Shown here: piece by piece, positions 12,487 through 49,273 of the stretch | Layout of the letters: each line of letters opens with the position of its first letter | How positions within the stretch are numbered: position 1 is the first letter of the stretch | DNA from: Acidobacteriota bacterium | GTDB taxonomy: Bacteria > Acidobacteriota > Thermoanaerobaculia > Multivoradales > JAGPDF01 | Length of the DNA stretch: 64,000 bases | Direction: 5' to 3' | Assembly: GCA_045862895.1 (NCBI GenBank) | Contig: BTUO01000001.1 | Coordinates: 998,890 to 1,062,889, forward strand | Made by a program: the position numbers and the translations under genes | The notes under the pieces: model-generated | Seen by the model: the letters and a program-made list of their open reading frames with translations, nothing else | Database searches by the model: none | What the model was told of the DNA's origin: nothing

Positions 12487-13308
12487 ATGCCAGTCCTCGG
12501 CATCCTGGACGGCATCGTCCAGACCTTCGAGCTCGCCACGCAGACGTGGTTCACGACGCTTTTCCCGATCGCGCAGAACCTCTTCTTCGCGCTCATGGTC
12601 ATCCAGATCGCCTGGGTCGGGATCTGGTCGACGCTCGGCCGGCACGAAGGCGGCGAGCAGGTGCTCGTCCACATCCTCCGCCAGGTCTTCGTCCTGTCGA
12701 TTCTCTACACGGTGCTCGTCTTCTCCCCGATCTGGGTGCCCACGGTGATTGGCTCGTTCGAACAGGCCGGCGCCGCGGCCGGCGGTATCGACGGCATCAA
12801 CCCGTCGTCGGTCTTCTCCGGAGGGTTCCTGCTCGCACTCGGCCTGCTCGACGGGCTCAACAACTGGGGCCTGCTCAACCCGATCACCGGGCCGATGATT
12901 CTGTTCACCTGCCTGACGCTCATCCTCTGCTACGCCTGGATGGCCGGAATGCTTCTCGTCTACTTGGTCGAGAGCTACATCGTCCTCGGCGGCGGCGTGG
13001 TGCTCCTCGGTTTCGGCGGCTCGCGGTTCACTGCCGGGCTCGCCGACGGCTACCTCGTCTACGTCTTCCGGGTCGGCGTGAAGCTCTTCGTCGCCTATCT
13101 CATTCTCGGCATCGCCGGCTCGCTCGCCGCGCAGTGGGCGGGGATGCTCAACGCCGTCGCGCTCGACAATCCCGGGCCGCTCTTCGAGGTCCTCGGTGGC
13201 GCTGTCGTGCTCGCGCTCGTCACCACCAAGGTGCCGATGTTCGCAAGCCAGATGCTGGGCGCAGGCCCTGGCTTCAGCCTGCGCTCCCTGTTCGTGGAGG
13301 GTCAATGA
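12487..13308 (+). CDS. trbL: TrbL (VirB6) integral membrane protein
   Basis: Polytopic hydrophobic protein, 273 aa, in the VirB6 position. The antisense ORF 12079-13305 is rejected. Confidence 0.65.
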   Translation: MPVLGILDGIVQTFELATQTWFTTLFPIAQNLFFALMVIQIAWVGIWSTLGRHEGGEQVLVHILRQVFVLSILYTVLVFSPIWVPTVIGSFEQAGAAAGGIDGINPSSVFSGGFLLALGLLDGLNNWGLLNPITGPMILFTCLTLILCYAWMAGMLLVYLVESYIVLGGGVVLLGFGGSRFTAGLADGYLVYVFRVGVKLFVAYLILGIAGSLAAQWAGMLNAVALDNPGPLFEVLGGAVVLALVTTKVPMFASQMLGAGPGFSLRSLFVEGQ

Positions 13309-21175: not shown

Positions 21176-21960
21176 CGGGCAGGCGAGCGCCGCGCCAGCC
21201 AGAAGCCGCTGTCACGCCTCTCGCCACACGCTCCAGGGTGCCCCACCGGGCTGCGCGCGAGCCCCTCGTCTCCTCCGGGGCGTCGTGCTCGCCCAGCCAC
21301 CCACCCTGGAGCAGCCCGTGCCTCTTCGTCCTCGCGCCCTCACCGACGTCAAGAGTGCGAAGGGCGGTCTCGTCATCCTCCTCCTTTGATCGCGGTCTCC
21401 GCCCAACGTCCCGTAAACCGTGCCCGCGGTGCGCCCGGCCGCAAGGCCAAGCCTCCGGCGCGCCGACTGACGTCAAGCGGCGCGGCCTTGTCGGCCGGGC
21501 TTCGTTCACCCCGGGCTCCCACCGGGCCGTGTTGGACGGTAACCACAACCAAAGGAGAAGGCAGATGACCAACAAGACCGCAATCACCCTCTACGGCAAC
21601 GTCGGCGGAGACCCGGAGACCCGCACCATCCCCGGCAAGCAGGTCACGAAGCAGTTCTACGACCCGATCATCGACGACATGGTCGAGCGCGAGTTCACCA
21701 CCCCCGAACGCGAGGTCCGGACCTTCTCGATCGCCGTCAGCAAGAAGGACGCCGAGGGCAACGACGTCACCCGCTGGATCCGCTGCGATGACTGGAACCG
21801 CCTCTCCCGCCTGGTCGGCAAGGGCGACCGTGTGAAGGTCAAGGGTCACTTCCGCGAGCGCACCTACCAGAAGGACGGCGAGACGAAGACCGTGCGCGAC
21901 TTCGTCGTCGAGGACCTCAAGATCGAGCGCCACAAGATCCGGCAGCGGGCGGAGTAGGAA
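21176..21960 (+). repeat. direct repeat copy 1 (~780 bp; structured leader + ssb-like gene), ~90% identical to 49274-50048
   Basis: Direct comparison of the two regions in the sequence. Similarity begins at GGCAGGCGAGCGCCGCGCCAGCC and ends at the ssb-like stop codon. Substitutions and small indels are concentrated in the non-coding leader. Confidence 0.85.
21565..21957 (+). CDS. SSB-like OB-fold protein (130 aa, no acidic C-terminal tail), copy 1
   Basis: The RBS AAAGGAGAAGG lies 4 nt before the ATG. Third-position GC exceeds 90%, whereas the in-frame upstream extension 21136-21564 has markedly lower third-position bias. ITLYGNVGGDPETRT ... KGDRVKVKGHFRERTYQKDGETKTVRDFVVEDLKI matches the SSB OB-fold pattern. 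Confidence 0.65.
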   Translation: MTNKTAITLYGNVGGDPETRTIPGKQVTKQFYDPIIDDMVEREFTTPEREVRTFSIAVSKKDAEGNDVTRWIRCDDWNRLSRLVGKGDRVKVKGHFRERTYQKDGETKTVRDFVVEDLKIERHKIRQRAE

Positions 21961-22146: not shown

Positions 22147-22500
22147 ATGCGACGGCTCCGGCACAGGCTCGCGTGGTTGGCGGCACTCGCCGCCTTGGCG
22201 TTTGCCGGAGTCCTTCCGCTCTGTGGCGACTGCGGATCGTGCGGCTCGTCGTGCCCGGGTCGCGACGCCTGCCACGAGGTGGCGACGTGGCTGGATGGCC
22301 CGTCGTGCTGCGCATCGGCTGGCCCGGCGGCCGCTGCCGATGCGGCGAGCCAACTCGCGGCCAAAGTCGTGGCGCCGCTGCCCGAAGTCGCCGCCACGCT
22401 CCCGCGCGTCGACGGCCACGTATTGGTCGGCCAGCGCGCGACCTGTCAGGTTTCCCGCACGCTCGATCGCTGTACCCTCTTCTCCTCCTTCCTCATTTGA
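22147..22500 (+). CDS. small secreted Cys-rich protein (CGDCGSCGSSCPGRDACHE...SCCAS)
   Basis: N-terminal signal-like hydrophobic segment. Third-position GC is about 85%. It lies upstream of the cupredoxin operon. Weak RBS and overlapping alternative ORFs keep confidence low. Confidence 0.3.
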   Translation: MRRLRHRLAWLAALAALAFAGVLPLCGDCGSCGSSCPGRDACHEVATWLDGPSCCASAGPAAAADAASQLAAKVVAPLPEVAATLPRVDGHVLVGQRATCQVSRTLDRCTLFSSFLI

Positions 22501-22634
22501 TCTGCCTGCGGTAGCCGCCGCGGCGGCCGGACAGCCCTCCGCGTGGGAGGTGCTGCTCGACCGTCGCTTCGCGCTCGCGTGCGCTCTGCGTTTTCCCGCC
22601 GAGCGCCAGCGGATCCACAGGGGGGAGAAAGTCG

Positions 22635-23153
22635 ATGTCTCGATTCGGCCTCGGTTCGATCGTCGCGCTCGCGGCGCTAGCCGTCGTCCTTGCCGGCTTG
22701 CTCGGGTTCTCCGGTGAAGCGGATACGGCGCCGGGGCCAGTGGAGCGAGAGATCCTGGTCGTTGCACGGTCCTACGCGTTCGAGCCGCCGGTGATCCGGG
22801 CGCGGCGCGGCGACACGCTGCGGCTGCGCTTTGCCTCCACCGACGTGGTCCACGGCTTCTACCTCGAGGGCCACGACCTCGACGTGACGATCCCGCCGCT
22901 GTCGCGCCGAGTTCTCGTCGCGCGCGCCGGCCGGTCGGAGGCGACCGAGGAGGTGGTTCTGGTGCTGGAGCGGTCCGGCAAGTTCCGCTTCCGCTGCTCG
23001 AAGACTTGCGGCGCGATGCACCCGTTCATGCAAGGGGAGCTGATCGTGGGGCCGAATCACCTCTTCGTCGGCTCTTCGATTGCGTCGGTCGCTCTGCTCG
23101 CGGTCGGGCTGGTGTGGGCCCTCGCCTCGCCCGGCCGTGGAGGATCGCGATGA
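22635..23153 (+). CDS. CuA-type cupredoxin domain protein (CoxB-like copper centre)
   Basis: An N-terminal TM or signal segment. The CuA-like ligand set is [11 protein letters not shown] ... [12 protein letters not shown] (compare COX II CSELCGINHAYM). RBS GGGGGAGAAAG. Confidence 0.6.
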
Positions 23154-24601
23154 GCCTCCCGATCGTCACTGACCGCCCGTCGCGAGGGATCGACCTCCTG
23201 GCGCGCCTTCCGCTCCTGCGCCGACTCTCGTTGCAGCGGTGGTTCCCGCTCGCAGGTGCTCTCTTCCTGCTCGTGCTCGGAGCGGTCCTGGTCGCGGGCG
23301 GGTTCACCGGCACTCCCGTGGGCAATCGGAGCGGAATCGTGGTGGCGGTCTGGATCCTCTGGTGGTTCCTGTTGATCGCCGTGCTGCTGCCGTTCGGCGC
23401 GCGGGCCTGGTGCGGGGTCTGTCCGGTTCCGGTGATCGGCGACTGGGTCCAGCGTCGCCGGCTCACGAGCGTCGCCGACGAAGACCCGCGCGCCACGTCG
23501 GTGGAACCCGGCAAGCTGATCGGCCGCAATCGCTATTTCGGCCTAGCGTGGCGGTGGCCACGTGCGTTGTCGAACCTCTGGCTCCAGAACCTGGGGTTCC
23601 TCCTGCTCGCCACGTTCAGCGTGGTGCTGCTCACCAGCCCGCTCGCGAGCGCGGTCGCCGTCGTCGGCATGGTGCTCGCCGCGACCGCCGTTGCCTGGGT
23701 CTTTCGGCAGCGGACCTTCTGCCGCTACCTCTGTCCGGTCGGTGGCTTTCTCGGCCTCTACTCGATGAGCTCGACGCTCGCCGTGCGCGCCCGGGAGGCG
23801 AGCGTCTGCGCGGCGTGCCGGGAGAAGAGCTGTCTCGCCGGCAGCGCCGGCGGCTGGGGCTGCCCGTGGCTCCAGTACCCGAGCCGGCTCGACCGGAACA
23901 ACGCCTGCGGCTTCTGTCTCGAGTGCGTGAAGAGCTGCTCGCACGGCAACATGACGATCTTTCTCCGCCGGCCCTTCGCCGAGCGGCGGCTCCTCGGCTG
24001 GGACGAGGCGTTCAAGGCGTACCTCATGGTCGCTCTGGCGATCGCCTACTCGGTGGTCTACCTCGGGCCCTGGGGTGAGCTCAAGGCCGCGGCGAACGTC
24101 GGCGAGGCGAGCGGCTGGCGCGCCTTCGGGCTCTACGCCGGCGCCTTGTGGATCCTGGCTCTGGTCGTCGTGCCCGGCGCCTTCGTGGCGGCGGCCTGGG
24201 GCGGTCGCCGCCTCGCCGGCGCGCGGCTCGCGTTGCGCGATGCGGCACTCGCTTCGGCGAGCGCCCTGGTCCCCTTCGGCCTGCTGGCCTGGATCGCGTT
24301 CAGCGTGCCGCTGATCCTCGCCAACGGCAGCTACGTGCCGAGCGCGTTATCGGACCCCTTCGGCTGGGGGTGGGACCTGTTCGGCGGCGCTGCGATGCCC
24401 TGGAGCCCGCTGCGGCCGCACTGGACGCCCTGGCTCCAGTCCGGTCTCGTCCTGGTCGGCCAGGGCGCGGGGTTCCGCTCGGGCTGGCTCGCTCACCGGG
24501 ATCTCGTGGGCGATCGCCGTGTCGCGGCGATCGCGTTCGCGCCGTCGGCGCTGCTGCTGACGGCGATCGCGCATGTGCTGCTGGTGCTCTATGCGGGGTG
24601 A
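23150..24601 (+). CDS. NosR/NapH/CcoG-like polyferredoxin membrane protein
   Basis: WCGVCPVP and [10 protein letters not shown] motifs plus a Cys cluster CAACREKSC...[11 protein letters not shown], with multiple TM helices. The ATG overlaps the upstream stop. Confidence 0.6.
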
Positions 24602-24605
24602 GGCG

Positions 24606-25619
24606 ATGACCGCATCGATCGGCGAGAGGGTGGCTGTCCTGGCGGTGGCCGCGGCGCTGGTTGCGGCCGTGGTGATTCCGCTGCGCATCGAGAGCGGGCG
24701 GCGCGACGCGCGGGAGAGCTCCATCCGGACGCTGGAGCTCACCGGCCTGATGCGCCAAGGCATCTGGACCGACGAGCGCGTGACGGCGGCCAACGCCTGG
24801 CGCGACGACTTCCGACCTGCATGTCCGGTGCTCGTGGTCGGCGAGCCGGTGAGGCTGCGCCTCGCGAGCGCCGACGTCGTGCACGCATTCGCGCTGCCCG
24901 ACCTCGGGGTCGCGCCGGTCGAGGTCTATCCGGGGCGGCCCGTGGAGGTCGTCGTCGTGCCGCGCGAAGCGGGAGTCTTCGCGTTCTACTGCACGACGGT
25001 CTGCGGCGACGCCCACTTCGGGATGCGCGGTGTCGTCCAGGTGGTCGAGTCGCCCGGTGTCCAGGTCGCCGAGTCGCCCGGTGTCGCCGCGGCTTCGATC
25101 CCCGCGACGCCCGGTCGCGACTACTGGCGCGCTGAGGCACCCGCCGACGACGCGGGAATGGTGGCGCGGGGAGCCTGGATCTTCCGGCGGCAGGGGTGTG
25201 TCACTTGCCACGGGGAGGGGGCGGCCGGGGGCGTCGCCAATCCCGGGGCGATGAACGCCACCGTTCCGGCGCTGGCGGACCTCGCCCGTCGCACCTTCCT
25301 GTTCACGTCGGCCGACGCGGCGTCGGTGGTGCGCGCGCTGGAGCAAGGGCCGCTCACCGCGCTCGACCAGGCACCTGAGATCCCGCTCTACGCCGTCGTG
25401 AAGAAGCAGTACCTGGCGACCCACCAGCTCGTCGCCTCCGGGCGCGTCGCCGCGCCGATGGACCCCACGAGCTCCCCTCCGCCGCTCGAGATGCCGGCGT
25501 GGGGGGCCCGCCTGACCGGCCGGGACATCGACTCCGTCCTCGCCTACCTGTTGACCCTGAGCCAGGACCGCACCGCGACCGCCGCGGCCGGGCCGGGCTC
25601 GACCACGTCGAAGGAGTGA
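24606..25619 (+). CDS. CuA-cupredoxin/cytochrome c fusion protein
   Basis: CuA-like CTTVCGDAHFGM followed by the haem motif CVTCHGEG, with an N-terminal TM segment. Confidence 0.6.
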   Translation: MTASIGERVAVLAVAAALVAAVVIPLRIESGRRDARESSIRTLELTGLMRQGIWTDERVTAANAWRDDFRPACPVLVVGEPVRLRLASADVVHAFALPDLGVAPVEVYPGRPVEVVVVPREAGVFAFYCTTVCGDAHFGMRGVVQVVESPGVQVAESPGVAAASIPATPGRDYWRAEAPADDAGMVARGAWIFRRQGCVTCHGEGAAGGVANPGAMNATVPALADLARRTFLFTSADAASVVRALEQGPLTALDQAPEIPLYAVVKKQYLATHQLVASGRVAAPMDPTSSPPPLEMPAWGARLTGRDIDSVLAYLLTLSQDRTATAAAGPGSTTSKE

Positions 25620-25623
25620 AGCC

Positions 25624-26241
25624 ATGAGATTCCACATCGTTCCCGCCATCGTCGCCCTCGGACTCGGCTTGGCCCTCACTGGCTGCGCGCGCAGCGAGGG
25701 ATCCGTGCAGGGATCCGCCCCGTCGGCATCCCCTGCGACGCACGTGTCCGCCCCCGCGGTCGACCAGCGGTCCCCATCCCACGCAGGGCACGGTTCCACC
25801 GTCACCACCGCCGCCACGGGGCAGGCGGCACCGGGTCAGATCGTGCCGACGGCGGCTTCGGGTGTCGCCCTGCCCGCCTTCAGCGGGACCCGAGAGGAGA
25901 CGACGCGGTTCATCGAGTACTTCCGGAACATCCCTCTCACTCCCGAGCAAGAGCGAACCAAAGTCGAAGCCCTGACCGCCATCCCCGCGCCCTGCTGCGC
26001 GGAGAACCCGCTCTCGACCTGCTGCTGCCCGTGCAATATGGCCAAGGCGGCGTGGGGGCTCAGCGCCTGGCTGATCACCGAGAAGGGCTTCGGCGCGGAA
26101 CAGGTCCGCGAAGCGACCCGCGCCTGGCTCGCCGCGACGAACCCGGGCGGCTTCTCCGGCGATGCCTGTCACAGCGGTGGCTGCGCCCGGAAGATCAGCC
26201 AGAACGGCTGCGGCGGAATGAACGAGGCCGAGGTGCTCTGA
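25624..26241 (+). CDS. Cys-rich lipoprotein (CCAENPLSTCCCPCNMAK)
   Basis: Lipobox LALTGCA. The Cys cluster suggests metal binding. It is the last gene of the plus-strand operon. Confidence 0.45.
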   Translation: MRFHIVPAIVALGLGLALTGCARSEGSVQGSAPSASPATHVSAPAVDQRSPSHAGHGSTVTTAATGQAAPGQIVPTAASGVALPAFSGTREETTRFIEYFRNIPLTPEQERTKVEALTAIPAPCCAENPLSTCCCPCNMAKAAWGLSAWLITEKGFGAEQVREATRAWLAATNPGGFSGDACHSGGCARKISQNGCGGMNEAEVL

Positions 26242-26295: not shown

Positions 26296-27645
<1,350 letters not shown>

Positions 27646-27697
27646 GCCTATATCCGCAGTCCCCCGTACGTCGCTGGCTGCGTCCGCGCGATGCGTT

Positions 27698-28492
27698 CTA
27701 CCGTCCCTGGACGTGCCGGAGCGTCTCCTCGGCGTCGAGCTCGCGTGTCGCGTTGCCGGTGCGCACCAGGAGGTGCGAGCCGTGGCCGTCGCGCAGGAAG
27801 ACCGGGCTCGGCGCCGGCTCGACCGTGACGCGGCAGACGTCGCGGTCGCCGACCCGTTGGAAGAGGACGTGGACGAAGGTGCACGACGCCGTGCCGAGCT
27901 TCTGCGCCACGAGATCGAGGATCAGGCGCTCGAAAGCGTCGTGGCTCCTGCCGCGCAGGGTCGCGAGATCGGGTTCGATCCCGAGGACCTCTCCGGAGTC
28001 GGCGACGCCGATCAGCAATGTTCCCCCACCGCCGTTCAGGAAACCGGCGATCGAGCGGACGATCGGCGACTCGAGCTCACGATGGACACAGCCATTGCGG
28101 TAGTCCCAGCGGATCGACGCCTTGAACTCCAGGCTCTGTCCTTCTCCCTGGCGAATCAGAGTCGCGAGATCGCGATCGAGCAGCCGGGCCAGGCGCTCCA
28201 CTTGCCGCTGGTGGCGCCGAGCCGCCACCGTGAAGAGACCGGAGAAGAGCCCGAGGGCCGTGCCGAAGGCCGCGAAGCGGCCGGTCATCACGAGCATGCC
28301 CGGCTCGAAGGCCGCGAGCAAGCTGTCGAGCGCAAAGCGCCAGGCCCGCCCGAGCCCAGCGGTATCGGGGGCGTGCTCGAGCCAGTAGATGACCATGGTG
28401 GCTGGGTGGAGCAGCAGCACCCCGAGTGCTCCCCCGATCGCCACATGGGCTCCGACCAGCGCCCAGGCGCCGACCCGCGCGATTCGTCGCAT
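27698..28492 (-). CDS. membrane-anchored AlbA_2 (Schlafen-like) domain protein
   Basis: Two N-terminal TM helices, then GEGQSLEFKASIRWDYRNG...LLIGVADSGEVLGIEPD, typical of Pfam AlbA_2 (PF04326). Start taken at MRRIARVGAW. Confidence 0.5.
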   Translation of the reverse strand: MRRIARVGAWALVGAHVAIGGALGVLLLHPATMVIYWLEHAPDTAGLGRAWRFALDSLLAAFEPGMLVMTGRFAAFGTALGLFSGLFTVAARRHQRQVERLARLLDRDLATLIRQGEGQSLEFKASIRWDYRNGCVHRELESPIVRSIAGFLNGGGGTLLIGVADSGEVLGIEPDLATLRGRSHDAFERLILDLVAQKLGTASCTFVHVLFQRVGDRDVCRVTVEPAPSPVFLRDGHGSHLLVRTGNATRELDAEETLRHVQGR

Positions 28493-28520
28493 CACGGCCG
28501 CTGATTCCGATCCGCCGGCC

Positions 28521-29726
28521 TCAGTTGTCGGCGGCCGGAGGCGGGGCCTCCGCCGGCATCGGAACACTCGTCCCGGGACCGGGACCCGGTGGAGCCAGGA
28601 CCAACGAGAGCGTGCGGCGCTCGCCGCCGCGGTAGAGGTCCAGAGTCACGGACTCGCCAGCCTGCTTGCTCTCGAGCCAGTCCAGTAGTTCGCCCGAGGA
28701 ACGGATCGCGCGGCCATCCACCGCTTCGACCAGGTCACCGGCGAGCCACCCTCCGGGAGTCTTCCGTTGGGTGCCCGTCACGCCGAGGCGTGCCGCTTCG
28801 CTGCCCTCGTCGACCGTGAGTACCAGCGCACCCGCGAGGCCGAGCGCCTCCACCAGGGCGTCGGGCGCCAGCCCGAAGCCAAGGCTCGGGCGGACGATGC
28901 GCCCATGCCGAACGAGCTGGGGCACGGATCGCGCCACCGCCGCCGCCGGAATCGCGAAGCCCACGCCGGCGGACGAACCGGAGGTGCCGTAGATCGCTGT
29001 GTTGACGCCCACCAGCCGGCCACGGCTGTCGATCAACGGGCCGCCCGAGCTCCCGGGGTTGATCGCCGCGTCGGTCTGGATCACGTCGTGGATGCGGACG
29101 CCCGACGGGGAGTCGACGGTGCGACCGAGGGCGCTCACGACCCCGGTGGTCAGGGTGTGATCGAAGCCGAAGGGGTTGCCGACGGCGAGCACGGTCTGTC
29201 CCACCCGGACACGGGTCGAGTCGCCGACGGGCAACGGCACAAGTCGCTCTGCCGGAGCGTCGACTCTCAGCACGGCGAGGTCCAGCTCTGGCGCAATGCC
29301 GACCAGGCGCGCACGCCAATGCGAGTGGTCGGCGAGCGCCACCTCGACCTGCTCGGCTCCGTCGATGACGTGGAAGTTCGTGACGACATGGCCTTGGCGA
29401 TCCCAGACGAAACCGGAGCCCGCGCCGAGCGGCAGCTCGTGCACGGCACCGGCCGATTCCTCGACATGCCGCGAGAAGGTGCGGATGCAGACCACCGATC
29501 GAGAGGCTGTGTCGAAGAGGTCGATCGTCGCGGCCTCGGCGGCGAGCAGGGAATTGGCCGGTTCGCCTTCGGACGCCGGAGCGGCGATCGTCGGCGCCCC
29601 CGCCTTCATTGTTGCTGCCGTTCCGGGTCGTACCCCCCAAGCGGCGACCACGATCAGAATCAACCACACCGAGCCGCCGCGACAGCCCAGCCGCAAATCG
29701 GCAAGCGATTTCTCATCGCGCTTCAT
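28521..29726 (-). CDS. htrA: HtrA/DegP-family serine protease with PDZ domain
   Basis: Catalytic triad context HVVTNFHVIDGA, DLAVLRV and GNSGGPL-like PGSSGGPLID, plus a C-terminal PDZ. RBS AAAGGAGCAAGG before the ATG (end coordinate 29726). Confidence 0.85.
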   Translation of the reverse strand: MKRDEKSLADLRLGCRGGSVWLILIVVAAWGVRPGTAATMKAGAPTIAAPASEGEPANSLLAAEAATIDLFDTASRSVVCIRTFSRHVEESAGAVHELPLGAGSGFVWDRQGHVVTNFHVIDGAEQVEVALADHSHWRARLVGIAPELDLAVLRVDAPAERLVPLPVGDSTRVRVGQTVLAVGNPFGFDHTLTTGVVSALGRTVDSPSGVRIHDVIQTDAAINPGSSGGPLIDSRGRLVGVNTAIYGTSGSSAGVGFAIPAAAVARSVPQLVRHGRIVRPSLGFGLAPDALVEALGLAGALVLTVDEGSEAARLGVTGTQRKTPGGWLAGDLVEAVDGRAIRSSGELLDWLESKQAGESVTLDLYRGGERRTLSLVLAPPGPGPGTSVPMPAEAPPPAADN

Positions 29727-30768
29727 GCCTTGCTCCTTTCTCTCCAACGATCGCGGGTGCGGCCGTGGCGGCGGAAATCTCGTTGTGCCCTCCGAGATGG
29801 CCCGGAGGCCACCACCCCTTTGCGACGACGCTCTCGAGGGCCGCGAGTGCCGAGGAATCGATCCGATCGGGCGCCATGGCGCGCAGCTCTTCAATGGCGG
29901 ACTCCGGCGTCGCGGCGGGCCGGTAGCGTCGTGCTTCGGTGATCGCGACGAAGATGTCCGCGACTTTCAGGGCGCGGGCGAGAAGCGGGATCTCCGGGCC
30001 TCGAAGGCCTCGGGGATAGCCGCTGCCGTCCGGGCTCTCGTGGTGAGAAAGAACCGTCTCGGCGAGATCTTCGGCGCCGCCCACCGAGCGAACCAGCTCC
30101 GCGGCGATGCGCGGATGGTCGCGAATCCTGGCCCGCTGCTCGAGCGAGAGCTGCTGATCGGACTGAAGAACGTCGTCGCCCAGGCCGATCTTGCCGATGT
30201 CGTGGAGGCGGCCCGCGAGGTGCGCCGCGGCCCTCTGGGAGCGATCGAGGCCGAGCTCGTGAGCGACGAGCTCCGCGAGGTCCGCCACGCGGCGGGAGTG
30301 CTCGGCGAGAGCGGGGTCCCGCGCGCCCAGGGCGGTCACGAGAGCGTCGAGGGCACTGCGCACCTCGCTCCGGGCAGCGGCGAGAAGCACTCGGTCGCGC
30401 TCGTCGCGGCGGCGCTCCGCATCCGTCGTGAGCGACCCGACGAGCAGGCCGACGGTGACGAAGCCGGCCACGACGGCGAGCTCGTCGAGCAGCGAAGCCC
30501 ACGGTGACGGATCGCGAAGGGCAACGTGCCCGAGATAGAGCAGGCTCGCGGCGCCGGCGAACAGGGCACCCACGCGCGCACCGCGCGCCTTTCCCGCCAG
30601 GACGATCGGCGCCAGATAGAGAGCGGCCAGGCCCACGTGGACCGCGTGCCGAAGCCCGGTGCCCCGCGCGCCGAGCAGGAAGTGGAACACGGTGATCGCG
30701 CCGAGGAGCACCCATGCCCAGCGGAGCGTGCGGCCCCTCGCCTCCGCGAGCGCAGAGTCCTGGGCCAT
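29713..30768 (-). CDS. membrane HD-GYP domain phosphodiesterase
   Basis: HD motif HLAGRLHDIGKIG and HHESPDGSGYPRGL (HD-GYP signature). The N-terminus has about four TM helices. Confidence 0.8.
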   Translation of the reverse strand: MAQDSALAEARGRTLRWAWVLLGAITVFHFLLGARGTGLRHAVHVGLAALYLAPIVLAGKARGARVGALFAGAASLLYLGHVALRDPSPWASLLDELAVVAGFVTVGLLVGSLTTDAERRRDERDRVLLAAARSEVRSALDALVTALGARDPALAEHSRRVADLAELVAHELGLDRSQRAAAHLAGRLHDIGKIGLGDDVLQSDQQLSLEQRARIRDHPRIAAELVRSVGGAEDLAETVLSHHESPDGSGYPRGLRGPEIPLLARALKVADIFVAITEARRYRPAATPESAIEELRAMAPDRIDSSALAALESVVAKGWWPPGHLGGHNEISAATAAPAIVGEKGARHEAR

Positions 30769-31010
30769 CGATGGACCGGAGAATGCGGGGTCCTCCGGAG
30801 TGCGGAGGCTACGTCCCCGGCCTCTGCGGACGGCGCCCCGGATCCGCGCCGAAAGAGTGCGCCGCGCCGCCGAGGGGGCCGTGCGATGGAGTTCAGCTGC
30901 TTCGGTGAGCTTCGTCGGATGCGGTGTCACTGTCGCCTCCTCGACTCTCCGCGGATCTGCGCGATCGGGCCAGCCGCGGAGGGCCGGCCCGATCTGGGGT
31001 CGCCTGCGCG

Positions 31011-31472
31011 TCAGTCGATGCCGTCGACGCGCGAGCCGCACTTCGACATCGAAGATCCGTAATAGGGGTTCGCGACCGCCGTGTCGGAGGTCGGCTGCAG
31101 CCAGTAGGCCTTCACCATGGGGCAGTGATAGAGCTGGGCGCCAGTGAAACCGGTCGCCGTTGCGAGCCGTGCCATCGCGCGCGACAGCTCGGCGAACGAC
31201 GTCCGCAGGAGCTCGAGCTCCTCTCCGTCGAGCTTCTTCGCCGTCTGGGCCACCTCGACATAAGCGCCGTCCGCACCCTCGCCCGCGGCGTTAGCGAGCG
31301 CGGCGAGGCGGGACGCCGCAGCGGTCACGCCCGCCACGCGGTCGGCGGCGAGCGCATCGTGAATCTCGTCGTAGGCCGCGAAGAGCGGCGCGGTCGGCGG
31401 CGGCGCAGCTTCCGCGCGCACGGCAGTGCCCGCGAAGAGTAGGAGTGCCGGAATCAGAACCTTGCGGATCAT
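31011..31472 (-). CDS. periplasmic metal-binding protein (DUF3347-like; YHCPM...CG motif)
   Basis: Signal peptide MIRKVLIPALLLFAGTAVRAEA. C-terminal YHCPMVKAYWLQ...NPYYGSSMSKCG. Lies directly downstream of cusA. Confidence 0.45.
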   Translation of the reverse strand: MIRKVLIPALLLFAGTAVRAEAAPPPTAPLFAAYDEIHDALAADRVAGVTAAASRLAALANAAGEGADGAYVEVAQTAKKLDGEELELLRTSFAELSRAMARLATATGFTGAQLYHCPMVKAYWLQPTSDTAVANPYYGSSMSKCGSRVDGID

Positions 31473-31531
31473 CAAGGGAAGCCTCCGTTTCGTTGGTTTC
31501 GTCGTCCATCGGGGTGAAATGGGGATCGGAG

Positions 31532-34500
31532 TCATGCCACGCTCGGCTCGAGCTCCGGTTCCGAACCGGGCTGCGGCTCGGGGTTCTTTTCGATCTCGCG
31601 CCGCCGCCAGAGCTTGTAGATGGCCGGATAAACCAACAGCTCGAGGGCGAACGAGGTGATGAGGCCGCCGATCATCGGGGCGGCGATTCGTTTCATGACG
31701 TCCGACCCGGCCGAGGTCGACCACATGATCGGCAGGAGGCCCATGAAGGCCGCCGCCACCGTCATCATCTTGGGTCGGGCCCGCTTGACGGCGCCGTGGA
31801 CGATGGCCTCGTCGACCTCGCCCTCGTTCCGCAGCAGGCCGCGCCGCTTGGCGTCGTCCCAGGAGAGGTCGAGGAACAGCAGCATGAAGACGCCGGTCTC
31901 GGCGTCGAGGCCGAGGAGAGCGATCATGCCGACCCAGGCGGCGATCGAGACGTTGTAGTCGAGCAGCCAGAACAGCCAGATCGCGCCGATTGCGGAGAAC
32001 GGGACCGCCAGCATCACCACCGTGGCCTTGAAGCTGGAGCGGGTGTTCGCGTAGAGGAGGGCGAAGATCAACACCAGCGTGATCGGCACGACCACCTTGA
32101 GGCGCTCGCGGACGCGGATCATGTTCTCGTACTGCCCGCTCCAGGTGAGCGAATACCCAGCCGGGAGCGTTACTGCGCTTTCGACCCGTCGCTTGGCCTC
32201 CTCGACATAGCTGCCGACGTCGCGCCCGGCGATGTCCACGTAGACGTAGCCGGCGAGGAACCCGTTCTCGTCACGAAGCATGGACGGCCCCTGGAGCAGC
32301 CGGACGTCGGCGAGTTGGGCGAGAGGTACCTGGGCCATCGTGGGGGTCGGCACCAGCACGCGACCGAGCCTCTCGGGGTCGTCCCGCAGCTCGCGTGGAT
32401 ACCGGACATTCACCGGATAGCGGGCGCGGCCCTCGATGGTGGTGGTGACGTTCTCGCCGCCGATCGCCGCCGCGATCACCATGTGCAGGTCGTCGATGAC
32501 GAGACCGTAGCGAGCGAGCTGGTCGCGGCGCGGAGAAATGTCGAGGAAGTAGCCGCCGGCGACTCGTTCGGCGTAGGCCGACCGCGTGCCGGGTACGTCG
32601 CGGACGGCCTGTTCGATCTCGGCGCCGAGACGTTCGATCTCGGCCAGGTCGGCGCCGAAAACCTTGATCCCCACGGGAGTGCGGACTCCCGTCGTCAACA
32701 TGTCGATGCGGGCCTTGATCGGCATCGTCCAGGCGCTGGTCACGCCGGGGCTCGCCAGGGCGCGGTTCATCTCGTCGACGAGCTCGTCCCAGGAGATGTG
32801 GTCGGGCCAGAAGGGGCGGAATGCAGGCTTCGTCCAATCGGGCCAGTCCGAGTACCACCGCGGCTTGGCTCGCCACTCGTCCTCGGGTTTCAGCACTACC
32901 GTGGTCTCGAACATCGAAAACGGAGCCGGGTCGGTGGACGTGTCGGCGCGCCCCGCCTTGCCGAAGACCCTCTCCACCTCCGGGAAGGCGCGCAGCACCT
33001 TGTCCTGGGCAATCAACAGCTCCTGCGCCTGGGCCACGGAGATGCCCGGAAGCGTCGTAGGCATGTGAAGAATGGTGCCTTCGTTGAGTGGCGGCATGAA
33101 CTCGGAGCCGAGGGTGAAATAGGCCGGTACGGAGATCGCGACCAGAAGCAGCGCCGCACCGATGACCTTCTTGGGGTGGCGGAGGACGAAGCGACAGGCC
33201 GGCTCGTAGACGCGGAAGATCGAGCGGCTGATCGGATGACGCTCTTCGGCATGGTAGGTACCGACGAGGGCGCCCGTCGCCAGCCGAGCCAGCCACCGCG
33301 GCCGGAAGCTGAACGGATCGATCCGGGCGAACATCATGCGCAGCGCGGGGTCGAGGGTGATGGCTAGGAGCGCGGCAATGGCCATCGCCAGGTTCTTCGA
33401 GAAGGCGAGGGGCTTGAAGAGGCGCCCCTCCTGGTCGACGAGGGCGAACACCGGCAGGAAAGCGACGGCGATGACCAGGAGCGAAAAGAAGACTGATGGA
33501 CCCACCTCCATCAGGGCCTCCAGGCGGACCTGATGAAAGCTCCCCTTGCGACCACCGACCTGCCAGTGGTGAATCTTGTTGTAGGCGTTCTCGACCTCGA
33601 CGATCGCTCCATCCACGAGGACGCCGATCGAGATGGCGATTCCTGCGAGCGACATGATGTTGACCGTCAGGCCCATGAGGTACATGGGGATGAAGGCGAG
33701 CAGCACCGAGATCGGAATGGTCAGAATGGGAACGACCGCGGAAGGCACGTGCCAGAGGAAGAAGAGGATCACCAACGAGACGATGATCATCTCGATCACC
33801 AGCTCGTGCTTCAGCGTGCCGATCGCGCGTTCGATCAGCGTCGAGCGGTCGTAGGTGGTGACCACTTCGACGCCCGCGGGGAGAGACTGCTTCAGGTCCG
33901 CCAGCTTCGCCTCGACAAGGCGGATGACGTTGAGCGCGTTCTCCCCGTGACGCATCACCACGATGCCCCCGACGGTGTCGCCTTCACCGTCGAGGTCCGA
34001 AACGCCACGGCGGATCTCGGGACCGAGCTCGATGTTCGCTACGTCGCGCAGCAGCACCGGGACGCCCCCGGGAGCGACCTTGACCACGATCTGCCCGAGG
34101 TCGTCCGTGCTCTTGGCGTAGCCACGGCCGCGCACCATGAACTCCCGCCCCGACAGCTCCAACAGGCGTCCGCCGATCTCGTTGTTCGAACGCCGCACGG
34201 CGTTGACGACCGTGTCGATCGGAAGTCCATAGGCCGCCAGCCGGTTAGGGTCGACCGTCACCTGGTACTGCCTCTGGTAGCCACCGATCGAGGCGACTTC
34301 GGCGACCCCGGGAACGGACTGCAGGGCGTAGCGCAGCGTCCAGTCCTGGTAGGAGCGCAGCTCGTCGAGCGAGTGCTTCTTCTCGCGGTCGACGAGGGCG
34401 TACTGGTAGACCCAGCCGACGCCGGTCGCGTCCGGACCGAGCTCGGTCTGGACGCCCTCGGGGAGCCGCGACTGGATCTTGGACAGATACTCGAGGACCC

Positions 34501-34822
34501 TGGAGCGTGCCCAGTAAAGGTCGGTGCCGTCCTGGAAGATCACGTAGACGTACGAGAACCCGAAGTCGGAGTAGCCGCGGATCGCTTTGACCTTCGGCGC
34601 TCCGAGCAGGTTGGCGATGATCGGGTAAGTGACCTGGTCCTCGAGGATGTCGGGAGAACGGTCCCATCGCGAGTAGACGATGACCTGGGTGTCGGAGAGA
34701 TCCGGCAGAGCGTCCAGTCGGATCTGCCGCAAGGTGTAGCCGGCGAGGACGATCAGGACAGCGACGGCCCCGAGCACGAGGAATCGGTTTTCGGCGGAGA
34801 AGCGGATGATGCGCTTGATCAT
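31532..34822 (-). CDS. cusA: heavy-metal efflux RND pump CusA/CzcA family
   Basis: 1096 aa. The N-terminus MIKRIIRFSAENRFLVLGAVAVLIV and overall HME-RND architecture match. The antisense ORFs 31445-33367 and 33533-34849 are rejected. Confidence 0.9.
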   Translation of the reverse strand: MIKRIIRFSAENRFLVLGAVAVLIVLAGYTLRQIRLDALPDLSDTQVIVYSRWDRSPDILEDQVTYPIIANLLGAPKVKAIRGYSDFGFSYVYVIFQDGTDLYWARSRVLEYLSKIQSRLPEGVQTELGPDATGVGWVYQYALVDREKKHSLDELRSYQDWTLRYALQSVPGVAEVASIGGYQRQYQVTVDPNRLAAYGLPIDTVVNAVRRSNNEIGGRLLELSGREFMVRGRGYAKSTDDLGQIVVKVAPGGVPVLLRDVANIELGPEIRRGVSDLDGEGDTVGGIVVMRHGENALNVIRLVEAKLADLKQSLPAGVEVVTTYDRSTLIERAIGTLKHELVIEMIIVSLVILFFLWHVPSAVVPILTIPISVLLAFIPMYLMGLTVNIMSLAGIAISIGVLVDGAIVEVENAYNKIHHWQVGGRKGSFHQVRLEALMEVGPSVFFSLLVIAVAFLPVFALVDQEGRLFKPLAFSKNLAMAIAALLAITLDPALRMMFARIDPFSFRPRWLARLATGALVGTYHAEERHPISRSIFRVYEPACRFVLRHPKKVIGAALLLVAISVPAYFTLGSEFMPPLNEGTILHMPTTLPGISVAQAQELLIAQDKVLRAFPEVERVFGKAGRADTSTDPAPFSMFETTVVLKPEDEWRAKPRWYSDWPDWTKPAFRPFWPDHISWDELVDEMNRALASPGVTSAWTMPIKARIDMLTTGVRTPVGIKVFGADLAEIERLGAEIEQAVRDVPGTRSAYAERVAGGYFLDISPRRDQLARYGLVIDDLHMVIAAAIGGENVTTTIEGRARYPVNVRYPRELRDDPERLGRVLVPTPTMAQVPLAQLADVRLLQGPSMLRDENGFLAGYVYVDIAGRDVGSYVEEAKRRVESAVTLPAGYSLTWSGQYENMIRVRERLKVVVPITLVLIFALLYANTRSSFKATVVMLAVPFSAIGAIWLFWLLDYNVSIAAWVGMIALLGLDAETGVFMLLFLDLSWDDAKRRGLLRNEGEVDEAIVHGAVKRARPKMMTVAAAFMGLLPIMWSTSAGSDVMKRIAAPMIGGLITSFALELLVYPAIYKLWRRREIEKNPEPQPGSEPELEPSVA

Positions 34823-34839
34823 GGCGATCTCCCCTCGGC

Positions 34840-36312
34840 TCAGTGCTGATGGCCGGTGTTGGCGGGCGTCGGGGCGGTGGCTCCGGCGGACGGTGCGGGT
34901 GCCTGCGCCGCCTGCAAAGCGGCGCGCAGTTTCGATTCGGAGTCGAGAAGGAAGTTGGCACGGGTCGCTACGCGTTCGCCTTCACGAACTCCCGACGAAA
35001 TGACGACCCTGCCGGCGCCACGAAGTCCGACCTGGACATCGCGCGGCTCGAAGGTTCCGGGCTCGAGCTCGACGAAGACCACCTGCCTCAGTCCGGTGTC
35101 GATCACCGCGTCCTCGGGGACGGCGATGCCATCGGCCGCCTCCAGGTCGGCCGTGACGTCGACGAACATGCCGGGCTTCAGGTGACCGTCGAGATTGCCC
35201 AGCTCGAGGCGCACCTTGAGAGTCCGGCTCTCGGCCGAGAGCGTCGGGTAGATGAAGGTGACCTCGGCAGGCATGACGTGTCCGGCCTCGTAGGGCAGGT
35301 GGACATCCGCCCGCTGTCCGACGCGCAAGAGCCGCGCTTCGTTCTCGTAGAACTCGGCCTCCACCCAGACATGGGAGAGGTCGGTGAGCGTGAAGAGCTC
35401 CATACCGGGCTGAACCTCCATTCCTTCGAGAACCTCCTTGGTGCTCACGAAGCCGGAGGCCGGTGCGACCAGCGTGACCGTGCGTTGCGCCTTGCCCGTG
35501 CGCTCGATGGTCTCGAGGAAGCTCTGTGGCACGTCGAACAGCTCCAGACGTCGGCGCGACGATGCGGCGAGCTCTTCGCCGCCTTCTCTGACTTCGGGAA
35601 TGTTGGAGCTCGCGAAGCGGGCGGCCGACTGCCGGGCGCGCAGGTACTCTTCCTGCGAGGCGAGCAACTCCGGCGAGTAGATGGCGAGAACCGGCTGGCC
35701 TCGGCGCACCAGTTGCCCGGTGAAGTTGACGTGGAGTTTCTCCACCCAACCGGCGATCTTGGTGTGGACGTGGCGAACCAGCCGCTCATCCGGCAGCACC
35801 AGACCCACGGTCCGGGTGGAGCTGGCGAGATGCTCGCGCGCCGCGACCGCGGTGCGGACGCCGGCGAGCTGGATGCCGCCGGCGTTTACGGAGACGGTCG
35901 CCAGCCCCGGAACCGAGCTCGCCGGGCGCGAGGCTTCGTCTGCATAGACCGGCACGTACTCCATCCCCATCGAGTCTTTCGCCGGCACCGGCGAGGTCAC
36001 CGACGGGTCCATCGGGCTGCGGTAGAAGAGGATGCGACGCTGTTCGGCGCCCGCGGCGCTGCCGGACCGGTCCGCGGCGTGCTCGCTCTTAGGAATCGGC
36101 ACCAGCTTCATGCCGCAGATCGGGCAGTCGCCCGGCTTGTCGGAGGTGTAGGTCGGGTGCATCGGGCAGTGCCAGCCGGCCCCCTCCTCCGAGTGCTCGG
36201 CGCCGCAGCCGAGAAACGGCAGGGCGACGAGGAGCAACCCGAGCACGAGCAGCGTGCGCCGGGCCGCGGCGGAGCGGGCGAGAGAATGGAACGGGTTGCG
36301 GAACATGGTCAC
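34840..36312 (-). CDS. cusB: RND efflux membrane fusion protein CusB/CzcB with N-terminal CPMHP...CPICGM metal-binding domain
   Basis: Signal/lipobox region, then WHCPMHPTYTSDKPGDCPICGMKL and a periplasmic adaptor beta-barrel region. Confidence 0.8.
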   Translation of the reverse strand: MTMFRNPFHSLARSAAARRTLLVLGLLLVALPFLGCGAEHSEEGAGWHCPMHPTYTSDKPGDCPICGMKLVPIPKSEHAADRSGSAAGAEQRRILFYRSPMDPSVTSPVPAKDSMGMEYVPVYADEASRPASSVPGLATVSVNAGGIQLAGVRTAVAAREHLASSTRTVGLVLPDERLVRHVHTKIAGWVEKLHVNFTGQLVRRGQPVLAIYSPELLASQEEYLRARQSAARFASSNIPEVREGGEELAASSRRRLELFDVPQSFLETIERTGKAQRTVTLVAPASGFVSTKEVLEGMEVQPGMELFTLTDLSHVWVEAEFYENEARLLRVGQRADVHLPYEAGHVMPAEVTFIYPTLSAESRTLKVRLELGNLDGHLKPGMFVDVTADLEAADGIAVPEDAVIDTGLRQVVFVELEPGTFEPRDVQVGLRGAGRVVISSGVREGERVATRANFLLDSESKLRAALQAAQAPAPSAGATAPTPANTGHQH

Positions 36313-37640: not shown

Positions 37641-37710
37641 GAGGTCCTCCTCGACCATTCCGGATGGAGCCCGCCTCTATTGGCGGGGTCCGCTCAGGCG
37701 TGGAGGGGCC

Positions 37711-38079
37711 TCAATTCCTCAGGACACAGGTCCTCGCCAGGCAGTCGAGAGGAGGGTGCGGTTGCCTCCGGTCGGGCAGGAATGGAATGGCGACCGGCAG
37801 CAGGGCGATCGCAGCGGTGGAGCCGCCGACGATTGCCACGATCGTCAATGGGTCCCGCTCCGGCACCACGGGCGCCGCGGCTCGCGCCGTGGGTGCGTGC
37901 TCACAGCAGTCCATCGAGACCGTCGCCGGGGCCGGCGGGCAGCAGTCGTGCCCGCCCGCTCCGCCCCCGTCCATCATCGGGCAGTCGGCCATGGCACATG
38001 CCTCGAACGCCGCCGCGAGGCCCGGCAGGAGCAGGGCCACGGCGACGGCGAGTGCGAGGAGCTTGGCGAACGGCCTCAT
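37711..38079 (-). CDS. small secreted Cys-rich protein, paralog A (leader gene of cusCBA)
   Basis: Signal peptide, then CAMADCPMMDGGGAGGHDCCPPAPATVSMDCCEH...LDCLARTCVLRN. Paralogous to 39253-39624, with conserved Cys positions and a shared LDCLxxxCVLR C-terminus. Confidence 0.5.
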   Translation of the reverse strand: MRPFAKLLALAVAVALLLPGLAAAFEACAMADCPMMDGGGAGGHDCCPPAPATVSMDCCEHAPTARAAAPVVPERDPLTIVAIVGGSTAAIALLPVAIPFLPDRRQPHPPLDCLARTCVLRN

Positions 38080-41592: not shown

Positions 41593-41641
41593 TCTCATTT
41601 CGACTTCTCCTTGTCTGGCTTTGGTCTACGGTCGGTTGCGG

Positions 41642-45453: not shown

Positions 45454-45482
45454 GCCCTACGAGGGCGCGGCGACGCTCCGTC

Positions 45483-45905: not shown

Positions 45906-45940
45906 GCCGGCGCAGAGTCTGAGCCCGGGGGCGCCGCTTG

Positions 45941-48583: not shown

Positions 48584-48620
48584 GGCTTCGATCTTCCCTC
48601 CTCGACTGAAGCAGACGGTC

Positions 48621-49208: not shown

Positions 49209-49273
49209 CACGCGACGATACTCCCCTGGCGAAGACCGTCCGCCGCAGGACTGCCTGAGGCAGGGCAGGCGAG

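Follow-up and report, generated by a model that had tools for sequence, protein, structure and literature searches.

A CuA-cupredoxin and polyferredoxin module of respiratory origin, copper-linked in one clade and carried on a mobile island of an Acidobacteriota bacterium

A 64,000-nucleotide stretch of the genome of an Acidobacteriota bacterium of the class Thermoanaerobaculia (assembly GCA_045862895.1, contig BTUO01000001.1, positions 998,890 to 1,062,889 of the forward strand; hereafter, the window) carries, at positions 22147-26241 of its plus strand, five co-directional open reading frames (ORFs), g1 to g5, which encode two CuA-type cupredoxins (g2 and g4), a membrane polyferredoxin (g3) and two Cys-rich secreted proteins (g1 and g5). 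Here, we show that these genes belong to a module that is real, conserved and uncharacterised, copper-linked in the clade that includes the window, and respiratory in origin. The core of the module is a triad formed by a g2-like cupredoxin, a g3-like polyferredoxin and a g4-like cupredoxin, which we trace through at least 488 species genomes; one derived clade alone, within this family of respiratory origin, is linked to copper.

Two CuA cupredoxins and a polyferredoxin in one operon

An operon that includes two Cys-rich secreted proteins had been proposed in the original prediction, made from the sequence of the window, and it is present, with five genes. The third-position G+C content (GC3) of the five ORFs, 0.81-0.91, is of the coding type. 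The ATG of g3 overlaps the stop codon of g2 (by 4 nucleotides; nt). Depending on which start codon g4 uses, there is either a 4-nt spacer or an 11-nt overlap between g3 and g4, and 4 nt separate g4 from g5; the 134-nt gap between g1 and g2 is the sole larger one, and a strong ribosome-binding site, GGGGGAGAA, is found ahead of the ATG of g2. A GC-rich hairpin is located 3' of the stop codon of the upstream SSB-like gene and the gene downstream of the operon is convergent; the operon is thus complete within the window. A scan of the operon for σ70 promoters and intrinsic terminators returned no match. A block upstream of g1 is conserved between the window and a related locus, L010 (related loci are designated by L numbers throughout), and occurs as a single copy in the window; no regulon motif shared across the island, such as a CorE-type motif, could be defined.

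The product of g2 (22635-23153, plus strand) is a bitopic CuA cupredoxin of 172 amino acids (aa), with a predicted topology in which a cytoplasmic N-terminus is followed by a transmembrane segment (TM), a periplasmic CuA domain, a second TM and a cytoplasmic C-terminus. Its CuA ligands, H73 and C121-SKT-C125-GAM-H129-PF-M132 (nt 22851-23030), are all aligned with those of the soluble CuA domain of Thermus ba3 subunit II (E 8e-11; phmmer), and the protein stays below the Pfam cutoffs, with 18.6 bits against 22 for COX2 and a sub-cutoff score also for Cupredoxin_1. The product of g4 (from 24591 or 24606 to 25619, plus strand; both starts are more likely than 24573, judging from the start sites of relatives) combines an N-terminal TM anchor, a CuA domain and a class-I cytochrome c. 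Here, the CuA ligands are H93 and C129-TTV-C133-GDA-H137-FG-M140 (nt 24882-25025; residues numbered from the Met at 24606), and the haem motif, CVTCH (nt 25197-25211), is accompanied by a distal Met within EMPAW. g4 is above the Pfam COX2 cutoff (40.9 bits against 22, E 2.2e-10), also passes the Cytochrom_C threshold, and matches subunit II of aa3/caa3 oxidases (E 1.4e-8), with PDB matches to 4w9z and 2yev_B (Thermus caa3 subunit II). The CuA domains of g2 and g4 are 36% identical over 76 residues. Both cupredoxins, as had been proposed, carry a CuA ligand set, the full H...C-x3-C-x3-H-x2-M pattern, aligned to solved oxidase CuA domains. A type-1 (T1) blue copper identity, in which the binuclear motif is lacking, was considered for g2 and g4 and rejected: both have the second Cys, in the CuA spacing, their best matches in the PDB are CuA domains, and a pseudoazurin model gave 16.6 bits against a cutoff of 109.85.

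With the subunit II of ba3-type (g2) and caa3-type (g4) oxidases, the two proteins share the CuA fold and all five side-chain ligands, and in g4 the parts follow one another (TM, CuA, cytochrome c) as they do in Thermus caa3 subunit II. They differ from an oxidase subunit II, however, in that each has a single N-terminal TM and not the two-helix hairpin, in that g2 has an extra C-terminal TM, in the presence of two distinct CuA proteins per operon and in the lack of a subunit I, both in the window and beside the module in related loci. The NCBIfam CoxB equivalog TIGR02866 scores 51.5 bits with g4 and 19.7 bits with g2, against a cutoff of 147.7. Models for NosZ match the C-terminal CuA part only (profile positions 490-578 of 578 and similar), with 15-32 bits against cutoffs of 625-700; moreover, g2 has only 172 aa, g4 bears a cytochrome c, and the CuZ propeller domain of NosZ is missing. 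The domains of g2 and g4 are of the subunit II type, yet the proteins are not oxidase subunits. The prediction that neither an oxidase subunit I nor nosZ is present holds for the window, in which Pfam detects neither, and for the vicinity of the module in about 90 related loci. The signatures GHPEVY and WxHHMF are absent from the window and from 94 related loci, no PF00115 or NosZ-type gene occurs in any Pfam-annotated neighbourhood of the related loci, and no heme-copper subunit I lies near a subunit II-type gene in the window or the related loci examined. The operon is bounded inside the window and no subunit I is found in its neighbourhoods, which speaks against an oxidase cut in two by the edge of the window.

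The polyferredoxin g3 (23150-24601, plus strand) is a membrane protein of 483 aa with about nine TM and a Pfam Fer4_5 match. Its Cys residues are arranged in the motifs CGVCP (residues 88-92) and CRYLCP (191-196) and in two 4Fe-4S motifs (220-239 and 253-263), one of which reads CAAC-x4-C-x9-CP; none of the 12 Cys varies among 22 diverse homologues, with identities as low as 49%. An AlphaFold2 (AF2) model (pLDDT 78.6, pTM 0.82), the hydropathy profile and K+R counts (positive-inside rule) place the Cys motifs and both 4Fe-4S motifs on K/R-rich cytoplasmic loops. The N-terminus is a 33-residue cytoplasmic tail, and a C-terminal extension of about 200 aa with five TM, well predicted and conserved, is lacking in NapH. 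The best NCBIfam match is to NapH/MauN (33.7 bits against a cutoff of 213), with a second NapH model at 27.4 bits against 234 (TIGR02163, PRK09477); matches in NCBIfam are of the NapH/MauN type only, no CcoG model was hit at E <= 0.1, and neither a FixG_C domain nor, in Pfam, an FMN_bind match was detected. No Pfam, NCBIfam or PDB entry spans the entire g3, and the PDB holds no relative of it by sequence profile or by fold. A tblastn search of a plasmid collection gave only a distant match (30%) in Deinococcus ficus, with uninformative surroundings. The description of g3 as a NosR/NapH-like membrane protein with a CxxCP motif is borne out in that it belongs to the NapH/NosR/CcoG superfamily.

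Within this superfamily, g3 and NapH/MauN have in common a membrane module of four helices that contains two Cys-x-x(-x)-Cys-Pro motifs and precedes two 4Fe-4S motifs on the cytoplasmic side; as with NapH, the module probably wires the membrane to redox partners in the periplasm. g3 differs from NapH/MauN in its first motif (CxxCP and not CX3CP), in the extra five-TM C-terminal domain and in a score far below the cutoff; no nap genes, including those for NapG, NapF and NapA, are found in the window, and the partners of g3 are CuA cupredoxins, not an Fe-S protein as in NapGH. The pair NosR-NosZ is the sole characterised example of a NapH-type polyferredoxin serving a periplasmic CuA protein, and the Cys motifs of NosR are essential; the equivalent Cys residues are invariant in the g3 family. 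However, the NosR/NirI/RdhC proteins are defined by a periplasmic, covalently flavinylated FMN-binding domain N-terminal to the membrane module (PMC5928378), which g3 does not have, and the cupredoxins of the module lack the CuZ propeller and are not accompanied by nosDFYL genes. CcoG/FixG, another membrane polyferredoxin of this superfamily, has been demonstrated to act in copper redox chemistry and affects copper tolerance, and offers a precedent for Fe-S-driven Cu(II) reduction feeding Cu(I) exporters. In contrast to CcoG/FixG, g3 matches no CcoG model and has no FixG_C Ig-like domain, a domain likewise missing from shorter CcoG homologues such as YccM (PMC7558416); there are no ccoNOQP or ccoHIS genes, and CcoG has no CuA partners. 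The module would seem to resemble NosR-NosZ or NapGH most, and perhaps CcoG, while lacking features that define NosR-NosZ and NapGH and others that are usual in CcoG.

The last gene, g5 (25624-26241, plus strand), codes for a Cys-rich lipoprotein of 205 aa with the lipobox LTGC and 10 Cys residues, nine of them after the lipobox Cys. These nine are invariant (PAPCC-x7-CCCPCN ... C-x4-C-x8-C-GGM), and a disordered linker precedes a helical C-terminal domain (120 residues; AF2 pLDDT >90). None of 32 members of the g5 family has a Pfam match; in NCBIfam, the only match is sub-threshold, to the unrelated lipoprotein model LpqN (13.3 bits against 250), and the best match in a fold search, CcmH, is too weak for use. 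The family is small, with 429 clusters when grouped at 90% identity and, in an HMMER profile search of 1.84 billion representatives, 209 when grouped at 50%, and closed, with no bridge to a known family except for rhodanese fusions in a divergent branch. g5 is found directly after g4 only in the copper-linked clade (see below), and was not found in the loci of other clades. It is tied to both CuA proteins and metal pumps, and its chemistry is thiol-based. The fusions of the g5 domain to rhodanese domains in the divergent branch (P0316, P0346, P0376) hint at sulfane-sulfur or thiol chemistry.

Members of the g5 family also occur in other settings. At L088, a second paralogue (12546-13064, minus strand; 172 aa, 35% identical to g5 of the window) lies immediately beside an RND pump, away from the CuA genes; at L091 (5643-7591), a g5-family gene next to CzcCBA comes after a fusion of a SAM-methyltransferase with COX2 that bears the CuA motif; and at L090 (7001-7474), a lone g5-family gene is located near ctaA, ctaB and DUF420. 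The first gene of the operon, g1 (22147-22500, plus strand; GC3 0.81), codes for a secreted Cys-rich protein of 117 aa with nine Cys (CGDCGSCGSSC, PSCC), in which an Arg-rich N-terminus is followed by a hydrophobic segment (signal peptide). It has no Pfam or NCBIfam match and is kept only in the closest relatives, L008-L010 (66-94% aa identity), being called as a 117-aa gene in L096. The original prediction had not recognised any of the products as a described cop/cus/pco component, and indeed none of g1 to g5 is matched by the Pfam and NCBIfam models of accessory families (CusF, CopC/D, PcoE, CopG, CopI and similar); g2, g3 and g4 match only CuA/cupredoxin, Fer4_5/NapH and cytochrome c models.

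A widespread triad with one copper-linked clade

More than 1,000 homologues of g3, named merely '4Fe-4S binding protein' or 'polyferredoxin', are found in a metagenome protein collection. In a species census based on one-genome-per-species contigs, relatives of g3 were detected in at least 488 species genomes of more than 10 phyla, the host groups including Thermoanaerobaculia, other Acidobacteriota, Planctomycetota, Desulfobacterales, Gemmatimonadota, Chloroflexota, FCPU426, Neomarinimicrobiota, Omnitrophota and others. The hosts are almost all metagenome-assembled genomes (MAGs); the closest relatives, with 96, 95 and 85% identity, are from Thermoanaerobaculia, some of them MAGs from anaerobic reactors. 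Gene partners were counted in 83-87 loci. A g2-like gene is present in 85 of 87 loci and a g4-like gene in 81 of 87, nearly always adjacent to g3 and on the same strand, and the CuA pattern is complete in 81/85 g2-like and 66/79 g4-like proteins. The Desulfobacterales encode a single protein of about 645 aa in which g2 forms the N-terminal part and g3 the remainder, an arrangement consistent with the predicted topologies. The tight coupling of the genes and the natural g2-g3 fusion point to a physical complex. At L072 (2697-9407) and other Desulfobacterales loci, the fusion gene is clustered with genes for a small CuA protein, a 565-aa multihaem cytochrome, a T1 cupredoxin, CcdA and a TlpA-like thioredoxin; these clusters place CuA machinery in presumably strict anaerobes.

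The genes that accompany the triad, identified by clustering the neighbouring ORFs followed by a Pfam scan of representatives, have a largely respiratory or lithotrophic look. The most frequent codes for a 224-aa plastocyanin-like protein with a CarboxypepD_reg domain (48/83 loci), in which the T1 ligand pattern is found in 54 of 55 proteins. A cytoplasmic rubrerythrin-like protein and/or a small Cys-rich protein is encoded at 34 loci, usually between g2 and g3, and a protein of about 460 aa at 25 loci. Cyc2, a fused cytochrome-porin, is defined by AxPxFAR[Q/K][T/Y] before CxxCH, PxL after it, and a length of at least 365 aa with a porin (PMC8406198); in 16 of the 25 proteins of about 460 aa, the motif PxFARKY-x3-CxxCH-x3-PxL identifies Cyc2. 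Less frequent partners are a TlpA-like thioredoxin (14 loci; adjoined by CcdA in the locus inspected), multihaem cytochromes (12 loci), an AioA-like molybdoenzyme with Rieske_3 and Molybdopterin domains (seven loci: L022, L043, L050, L064, L065, L074 and L077; for example, L050 3530-6226), and a Rieske/cytochrome b pair with a GltD-like Fe-S flavoprotein (seven loci). The canonical gene order is T1, Cyc2, T1, g2, rubrerythrin-like, g3, g4 (for example, L039 4224-10150; also L012, L045 and L030).

In a neighbour-joining tree of the g3 domain, the Desulfobacterales fusions form one clade, a second and large one has Cyc2, T1 and rubrerythrin-like genes, and the third comprises the window, L008-10, L004, L093, L088, L026, L094 and the Chloroflexota loci L082/83/85. 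The Acidithiobacillus rus operon encodes a chain formed by Cyc2, rusticyanin, Cyc1 and CoxB/CoxA, and the largest clade shares with it a relay from a metal oxidase to a cupredoxin and on to CuA; it differs in having a polyferredoxin and a cytoplasmic diiron protein in place of the heme-copper catalytic subunit. In the clade of the window, Cyc2, T1 and rubrerythrin-like genes are all missing; tblastn found no homologue of Cyc2, the T1 cupredoxin or the rubrerythrin-like protein anywhere in the window. Together with Cyc2, T1 and rubrerythrin-like genes, the triad is a candidate for the inner-membrane end of Cyc2 pathways and appears to be undescribed. Full-text literature searches gave no description of the module, of its pairing with Cyc2 or of its copper-island version, and no description of the module as such was found in Pfam, NCBIfam or the PDB sequences.

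The clade of the window is set apart by its neighbours. Genes for Cus-type RND pumps, CusB, P1B-ATPases, multicopper oxidases or Csp lie near the module at 9 of its 12 loci as against 1 of 73 elsewhere (Fisher p = 5e-9), and the three loci without copper neighbours are on contigs of 2.8-7.4 kb. At L093, the genes for an OMF protein, CusB (with an HMBD domain), an RND pump and an HD_5 protein precede g2-g3-g4-g5 on one strand; at L094, a Csp gene is found upstream of a P1B-ATPase gene (YHS, HMBD) that immediately precedes g2-g3-g4-g5; at L088, a multicopper oxidase gene, g2 to g5, an HD_5 gene and an RND gene follow one another, with the second g5 paralogue at the pump; and at L004, the order is RND-PII-HD_5 and then g2 to g5. 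In L010, L096 and L097, on related elements, the order is that of the window, with SSB, (g1), g2 to g5 and then HD_5-RND. P1B-ATPase genes are found close to the module in the window and in L094, L082, L085 and L010. The copper contexts of L093, L094 and L088 are independent of each other; exporter types and gene orders vary across the clade.

Conservation of the gene neighbourhood thus ties the clade of the window to genes for Cu/Ag export. The original prediction had gone further and regarded the module as apparently dedicated to copper handling, for example Cu(II)/Cu(I) redox cycling or metallation, rather than to respiration. The copper link stands for the clade of the window, where the chemistry would be Cu(II) reduction, Cu(I) oxidation or metallation, but the dedication does not extend to the family as a whole. 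Of the copies found in at least 488 species genomes, the majority are not flanked by genes for metal resistance and lie amid Cyc2, T1, rubrerythrin-like, Rieske/cytochrome b, AioA-like and multihaem cytochrome genes.

The mobile copper island

The operon was also predicted to lie inside a copper island, and the island is real: genes for a Cus-like pump, a multicopper oxidase, a P1B-ATPase and an ECF sigma factor are found alongside conjugation genes. The window has an overall G+C content of about 70%. Type IV secretion system/conjugation genes, of the VirD4/TraG, VirB11, VirB4, VirB6, VirB9, VirB10 and ParA types, occupy 3.5-17 kb, upstream of the operon, and are followed by DUF5677, RadC and then the SSB-like gene; a second SSB-like gene is located beyond the copper cargo. 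A direct repeat of 784 bp with 94.6% identity (21177-21958 and 49263-50046) corresponds to the 3' parts of the two SSB-like genes, each copy stopping at its own stop codon, and flanks the whole 27.3-kb copper cargo. Its presence at both ends suggests that the cargo was inserted or assembled via recombination at a backbone gene of the conjugative element. No tRNA gene was found in the window.

Downstream of the operon, the minus strand carries, in order, genes for a 449-aa protein, a Schlafen/AlbA_2 protein, HtrA, an HD_5 protein and a CusA/CusB(HMBD)/OMF pump. The copper genes recognised with Pfam span 29.7-49.3 kb and include the HD_5 (HD-GYP-type) membrane protein and the CusA/CusB(HMBD)/OMF efflux pump (29713-37658, minus strand), both recurrent neighbours in the clade of the window, as well as a cytochrome c, the multicopper oxidase, a second OMF protein, the P1B-ATPase (YHS and two HMBD domains) and the ECF sigma factor (41642-49301, minus strand). 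The multicopper oxidase gene and the class-I cytochrome c gene downstream of it (41642-43601, minus strand) are translationally coupled, with a 17-nt overlap; a cytochrome c is an unusual companion for a CueO-type enzyme. Three further secreted proteins, none with a Pfam match, are encoded on the minus strand: a 122-aa Cys-rich protein (37711-38079; HDCC, DCCEH), just upstream of the OMF gene and reminiscent of g1 and of a 143-aa protein of L093; a 162-aa His/Met-rich, lipoprotein-like protein (38118-38606); and a 236-aa His-rich protein (40888-41598) with the C-terminal motif YFGCCPMCKERL (YHS/TRASH-like). The 449-aa protein (NmeDI_C restriction-endonuclease-like in relatives) and the Schlafen/AlbA_2 protein are encoded at 26296-28567 (minus strand), between the CuA operon and the HtrA/HD_5/Cus genes, in an arrangement kept in L010, L096 and L097; they may represent a defence or addiction pair within the metal island.

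Possible function and direction of electron flow

We favour, with a probability of about 0.4, a reading in which an electron module of the respiratory type has been turned to Cu(II)/Cu(I) chemistry in the periplasm in support of Cu(I) export, with electrons flowing outward; complex formation, copper as the substrate and the direction of electron flow are inferred. In the proposed scheme, g2, g3 and g4 would form one membrane complex, in which a NapH/NosR-type polyferredoxin, with two anchored periplasmic CuA cupredoxins, would couple the membrane or cytoplasmic side (the quinol pool and/or Fe-S clusters) to periplasmic one-electron carriers. Electrons would pass from quinol or Fe-S to CuA, on to haem c and finally to Cu(II); the resulting Cu(I) would be captured by the thiolate-rich g5, which would pull the reduction forward, and then be handed to CusCBA. 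Both CusCBA and the P1B-ATPases transport Cu(I). The clade of the window has lost the usual partners of the triad, has the nine-Cys g5 and moves with Cu(I)/Ag(I) exporters on mobile islands. An outward, reductive direction is supported by the behaviour of NapH, NosR and CcoG. The membrane module of NapH is proposed to oxidise quinol and to pass the electrons to periplasmic partners, and NosR is required for electron transfer towards the CuA enzyme NosZ (PMC5928378); CcoG contains two 4Fe-4S clusters and reduces Cu(II) specifically, and its overproduction results in a higher copper tolerance (PMC7558416).

Several observations weigh against this reading. The g5 relatives that follow a methyltransferase-COX2 fusion (L091) or sit near ctaA/ctaB (L090) indicate that g5 could be a mere chaperone for CuA assembly. 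The electron donors found in the sister clades (Cyc2, AioA-like, Rieske/cytochrome b), together with the cytoplasmic rubrerythrin-like partner, suggest an inward flow, and CuA is, to our knowledge, the site of electron entry in all characterised enzymes. The hosts are likely to be anaerobes, in which copper is largely Cu(I) already, and the island already carries a multicopper oxidase, which works in the oxidative direction. No invariant His, Met or Cys is found in the TM or periplasmic segments of g3, which leaves the route from the clusters to CuA unexplained unless it runs via a quinone site. Finally, nearly all the relatives are from metagenome-assembled genomes.

Among the alternatives, the one that survives best, although we consider it doubtful, is a copper-dependent respiratory branch that rides with the copper genes or is co-regulated with them and has no direct role in detoxification. 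It would provide a Cu-rich route (4 Cu per complex) for times when copper is plentiful, with g5 as a CuA-assembly chaperone or thiol reductant. Most of the family is found in respiratory-looking clusters with no metal-resistance context, as this alternative would have it, and it also accommodates the g5 relatives that accompany another CuA-domain protein (L091) or haem A/O synthase genes (L090). CcdA and TlpA-like thioredoxins are typical helpers of periplasmic thiol reduction and CuA maturation, and both are encoded at the Desulfobacterales loci. However, the copper linkage is clade-wide and recurs with varied exporters and gene orders, including a one-strand string with CusCBA, the module is cargo on conjugative elements beside resistance genes, and a g5 paralogue is found right at an RND pump, away from the CuA genes.

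The reverse direction defines a second alternative, an O2-independent cuprous oxidase, which we regard as unlikely. Here, Cu(I) from g5 would be oxidised at the haem c/CuA end and the electrons would be sent inward via g3, to the quinone pool or to a cytoplasmic acceptor, giving anaerobes a CueO-like detoxification independent of oxygen. The sister clades pair the triad with donors (the Cyc2 motif in 16/25, T1, AioA-like) and with a rubrerythrin-like protein as a possible sink, and retention of the ancestral direction would be more parsimonious; in caa3-type subunit II, moreover, CuA and cytochrome c are devices for electron entry, and the closest relatives of the window are Thermoanaerobaculia MAGs, some of them from anaerobic reactors. 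The copper-linked clade, however, lacks the rubrerythrin-like partner and has no evident acceptor. The potential of CuA is about +250 mV, and electron transfer from CuA to menaquinone or to ordinary 4Fe-4S clusters would be uphill. In addition, a lipoprotein with nine thiolates would stabilise Cu(I) and hinder its oxidation, and NapH, NosR and CcoG all send electrons outward or to an acceptor.

A third alternative, very unlikely in our view, is a CcoG-like cytoplasmic cupric reductase, in which the Cys motifs and clusters of g3 would reduce Cu(II) for a P1B-ATPase with electrons donated by CuA/cytochrome c from the respiratory chain. CcoG, which is specific for Cu(II) and raises tolerance, contains two Cu sites besides its two 4Fe-4S clusters, its physiological donor being unknown (PMC7558416). 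It shares Fer4_5 and the cytoplasmic clusters with g3, and P1B-ATPase genes adjoin the module in the five loci named above. Nevertheless, the only matches of g3 are of the NapH/MauN type, with neither a CcoG model at E <= 0.1 nor FixG_C; the periplasmic lipoprotein g5 would be left unexplained, and transfer from a high-potential CuA to cytoplasmic clusters is thermodynamically awkward. Lastly, the operon might be part of an ordinary heme-copper oxidase or nos cluster whose catalytic subunit is encoded elsewhere, as suggested by the g4 domain order, exactly that of caa3 subunit II, and by weak scores of g2 against the C-terminal domains of NosZ and L-NosZ, or g2 and g4 might be T1 blue-copper proteins. 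Both ideas are hardly tenable, given an operon bounded by the SSB-side hairpin and a convergent gene, neighbourhoods examined without PF00115/NosZ-type genes or the GHPEVY/WxHHMF signatures, and ligands (two Cys, two His, one Met) that are spaced as in CuA, align to solved CuA sites and are kept in 81/85 g2-like and 66/79 g4-like relatives.

A bolder possibility, which we put forward with considerable reserve, is that the triad represents a membrane redox enzyme of a new class, in which a NapH-type polyferredoxin takes the place of the heme-copper subunit I as the partner to which CuA, alone or together with haem c, is wired. In most lineages, such an enzyme would be the inner-membrane acceptor for electrons of the Cyc2/T1/AioA type, passing them to a rubrerythrin-like reductase; in the clade of the window, with g5, it would act as an O2-independent periplasmic copper oxidoreductase coupled to the respiratory chain. 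If true, the family would comprise an energy-conserving terminal module without a heme-copper centre, and its copper-linked clade a previously unrecognised kind of mobile copper/silver resistance determinant. The family gives NapH/NosR-type polyferredoxins a co-conserved, sometimes fused CuA partner. Uncultured Acidobacteriota, Planctomycetota, Desulfobacterota and others commonly have it, often beside Cyc2; in the copper-linked clade, it comes as a compact four-gene unit that could be expressed and tested. We know of no report from bacteria of a periplasmic oxidoreductase that is dedicated to Cu(II)/Cu(I) and coupled to the respiratory chain. Multicopper oxidases cannot work in anaerobes. CcoG is the only Cu(II)-specific bacterial reductase named in a review, in which its physiological donor is given as unknown (PMC7558416). 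A mobile setter of the periplasmic copper redox state would change the way in which Cu/Ag resistance islands are read, above all in anaerobes.

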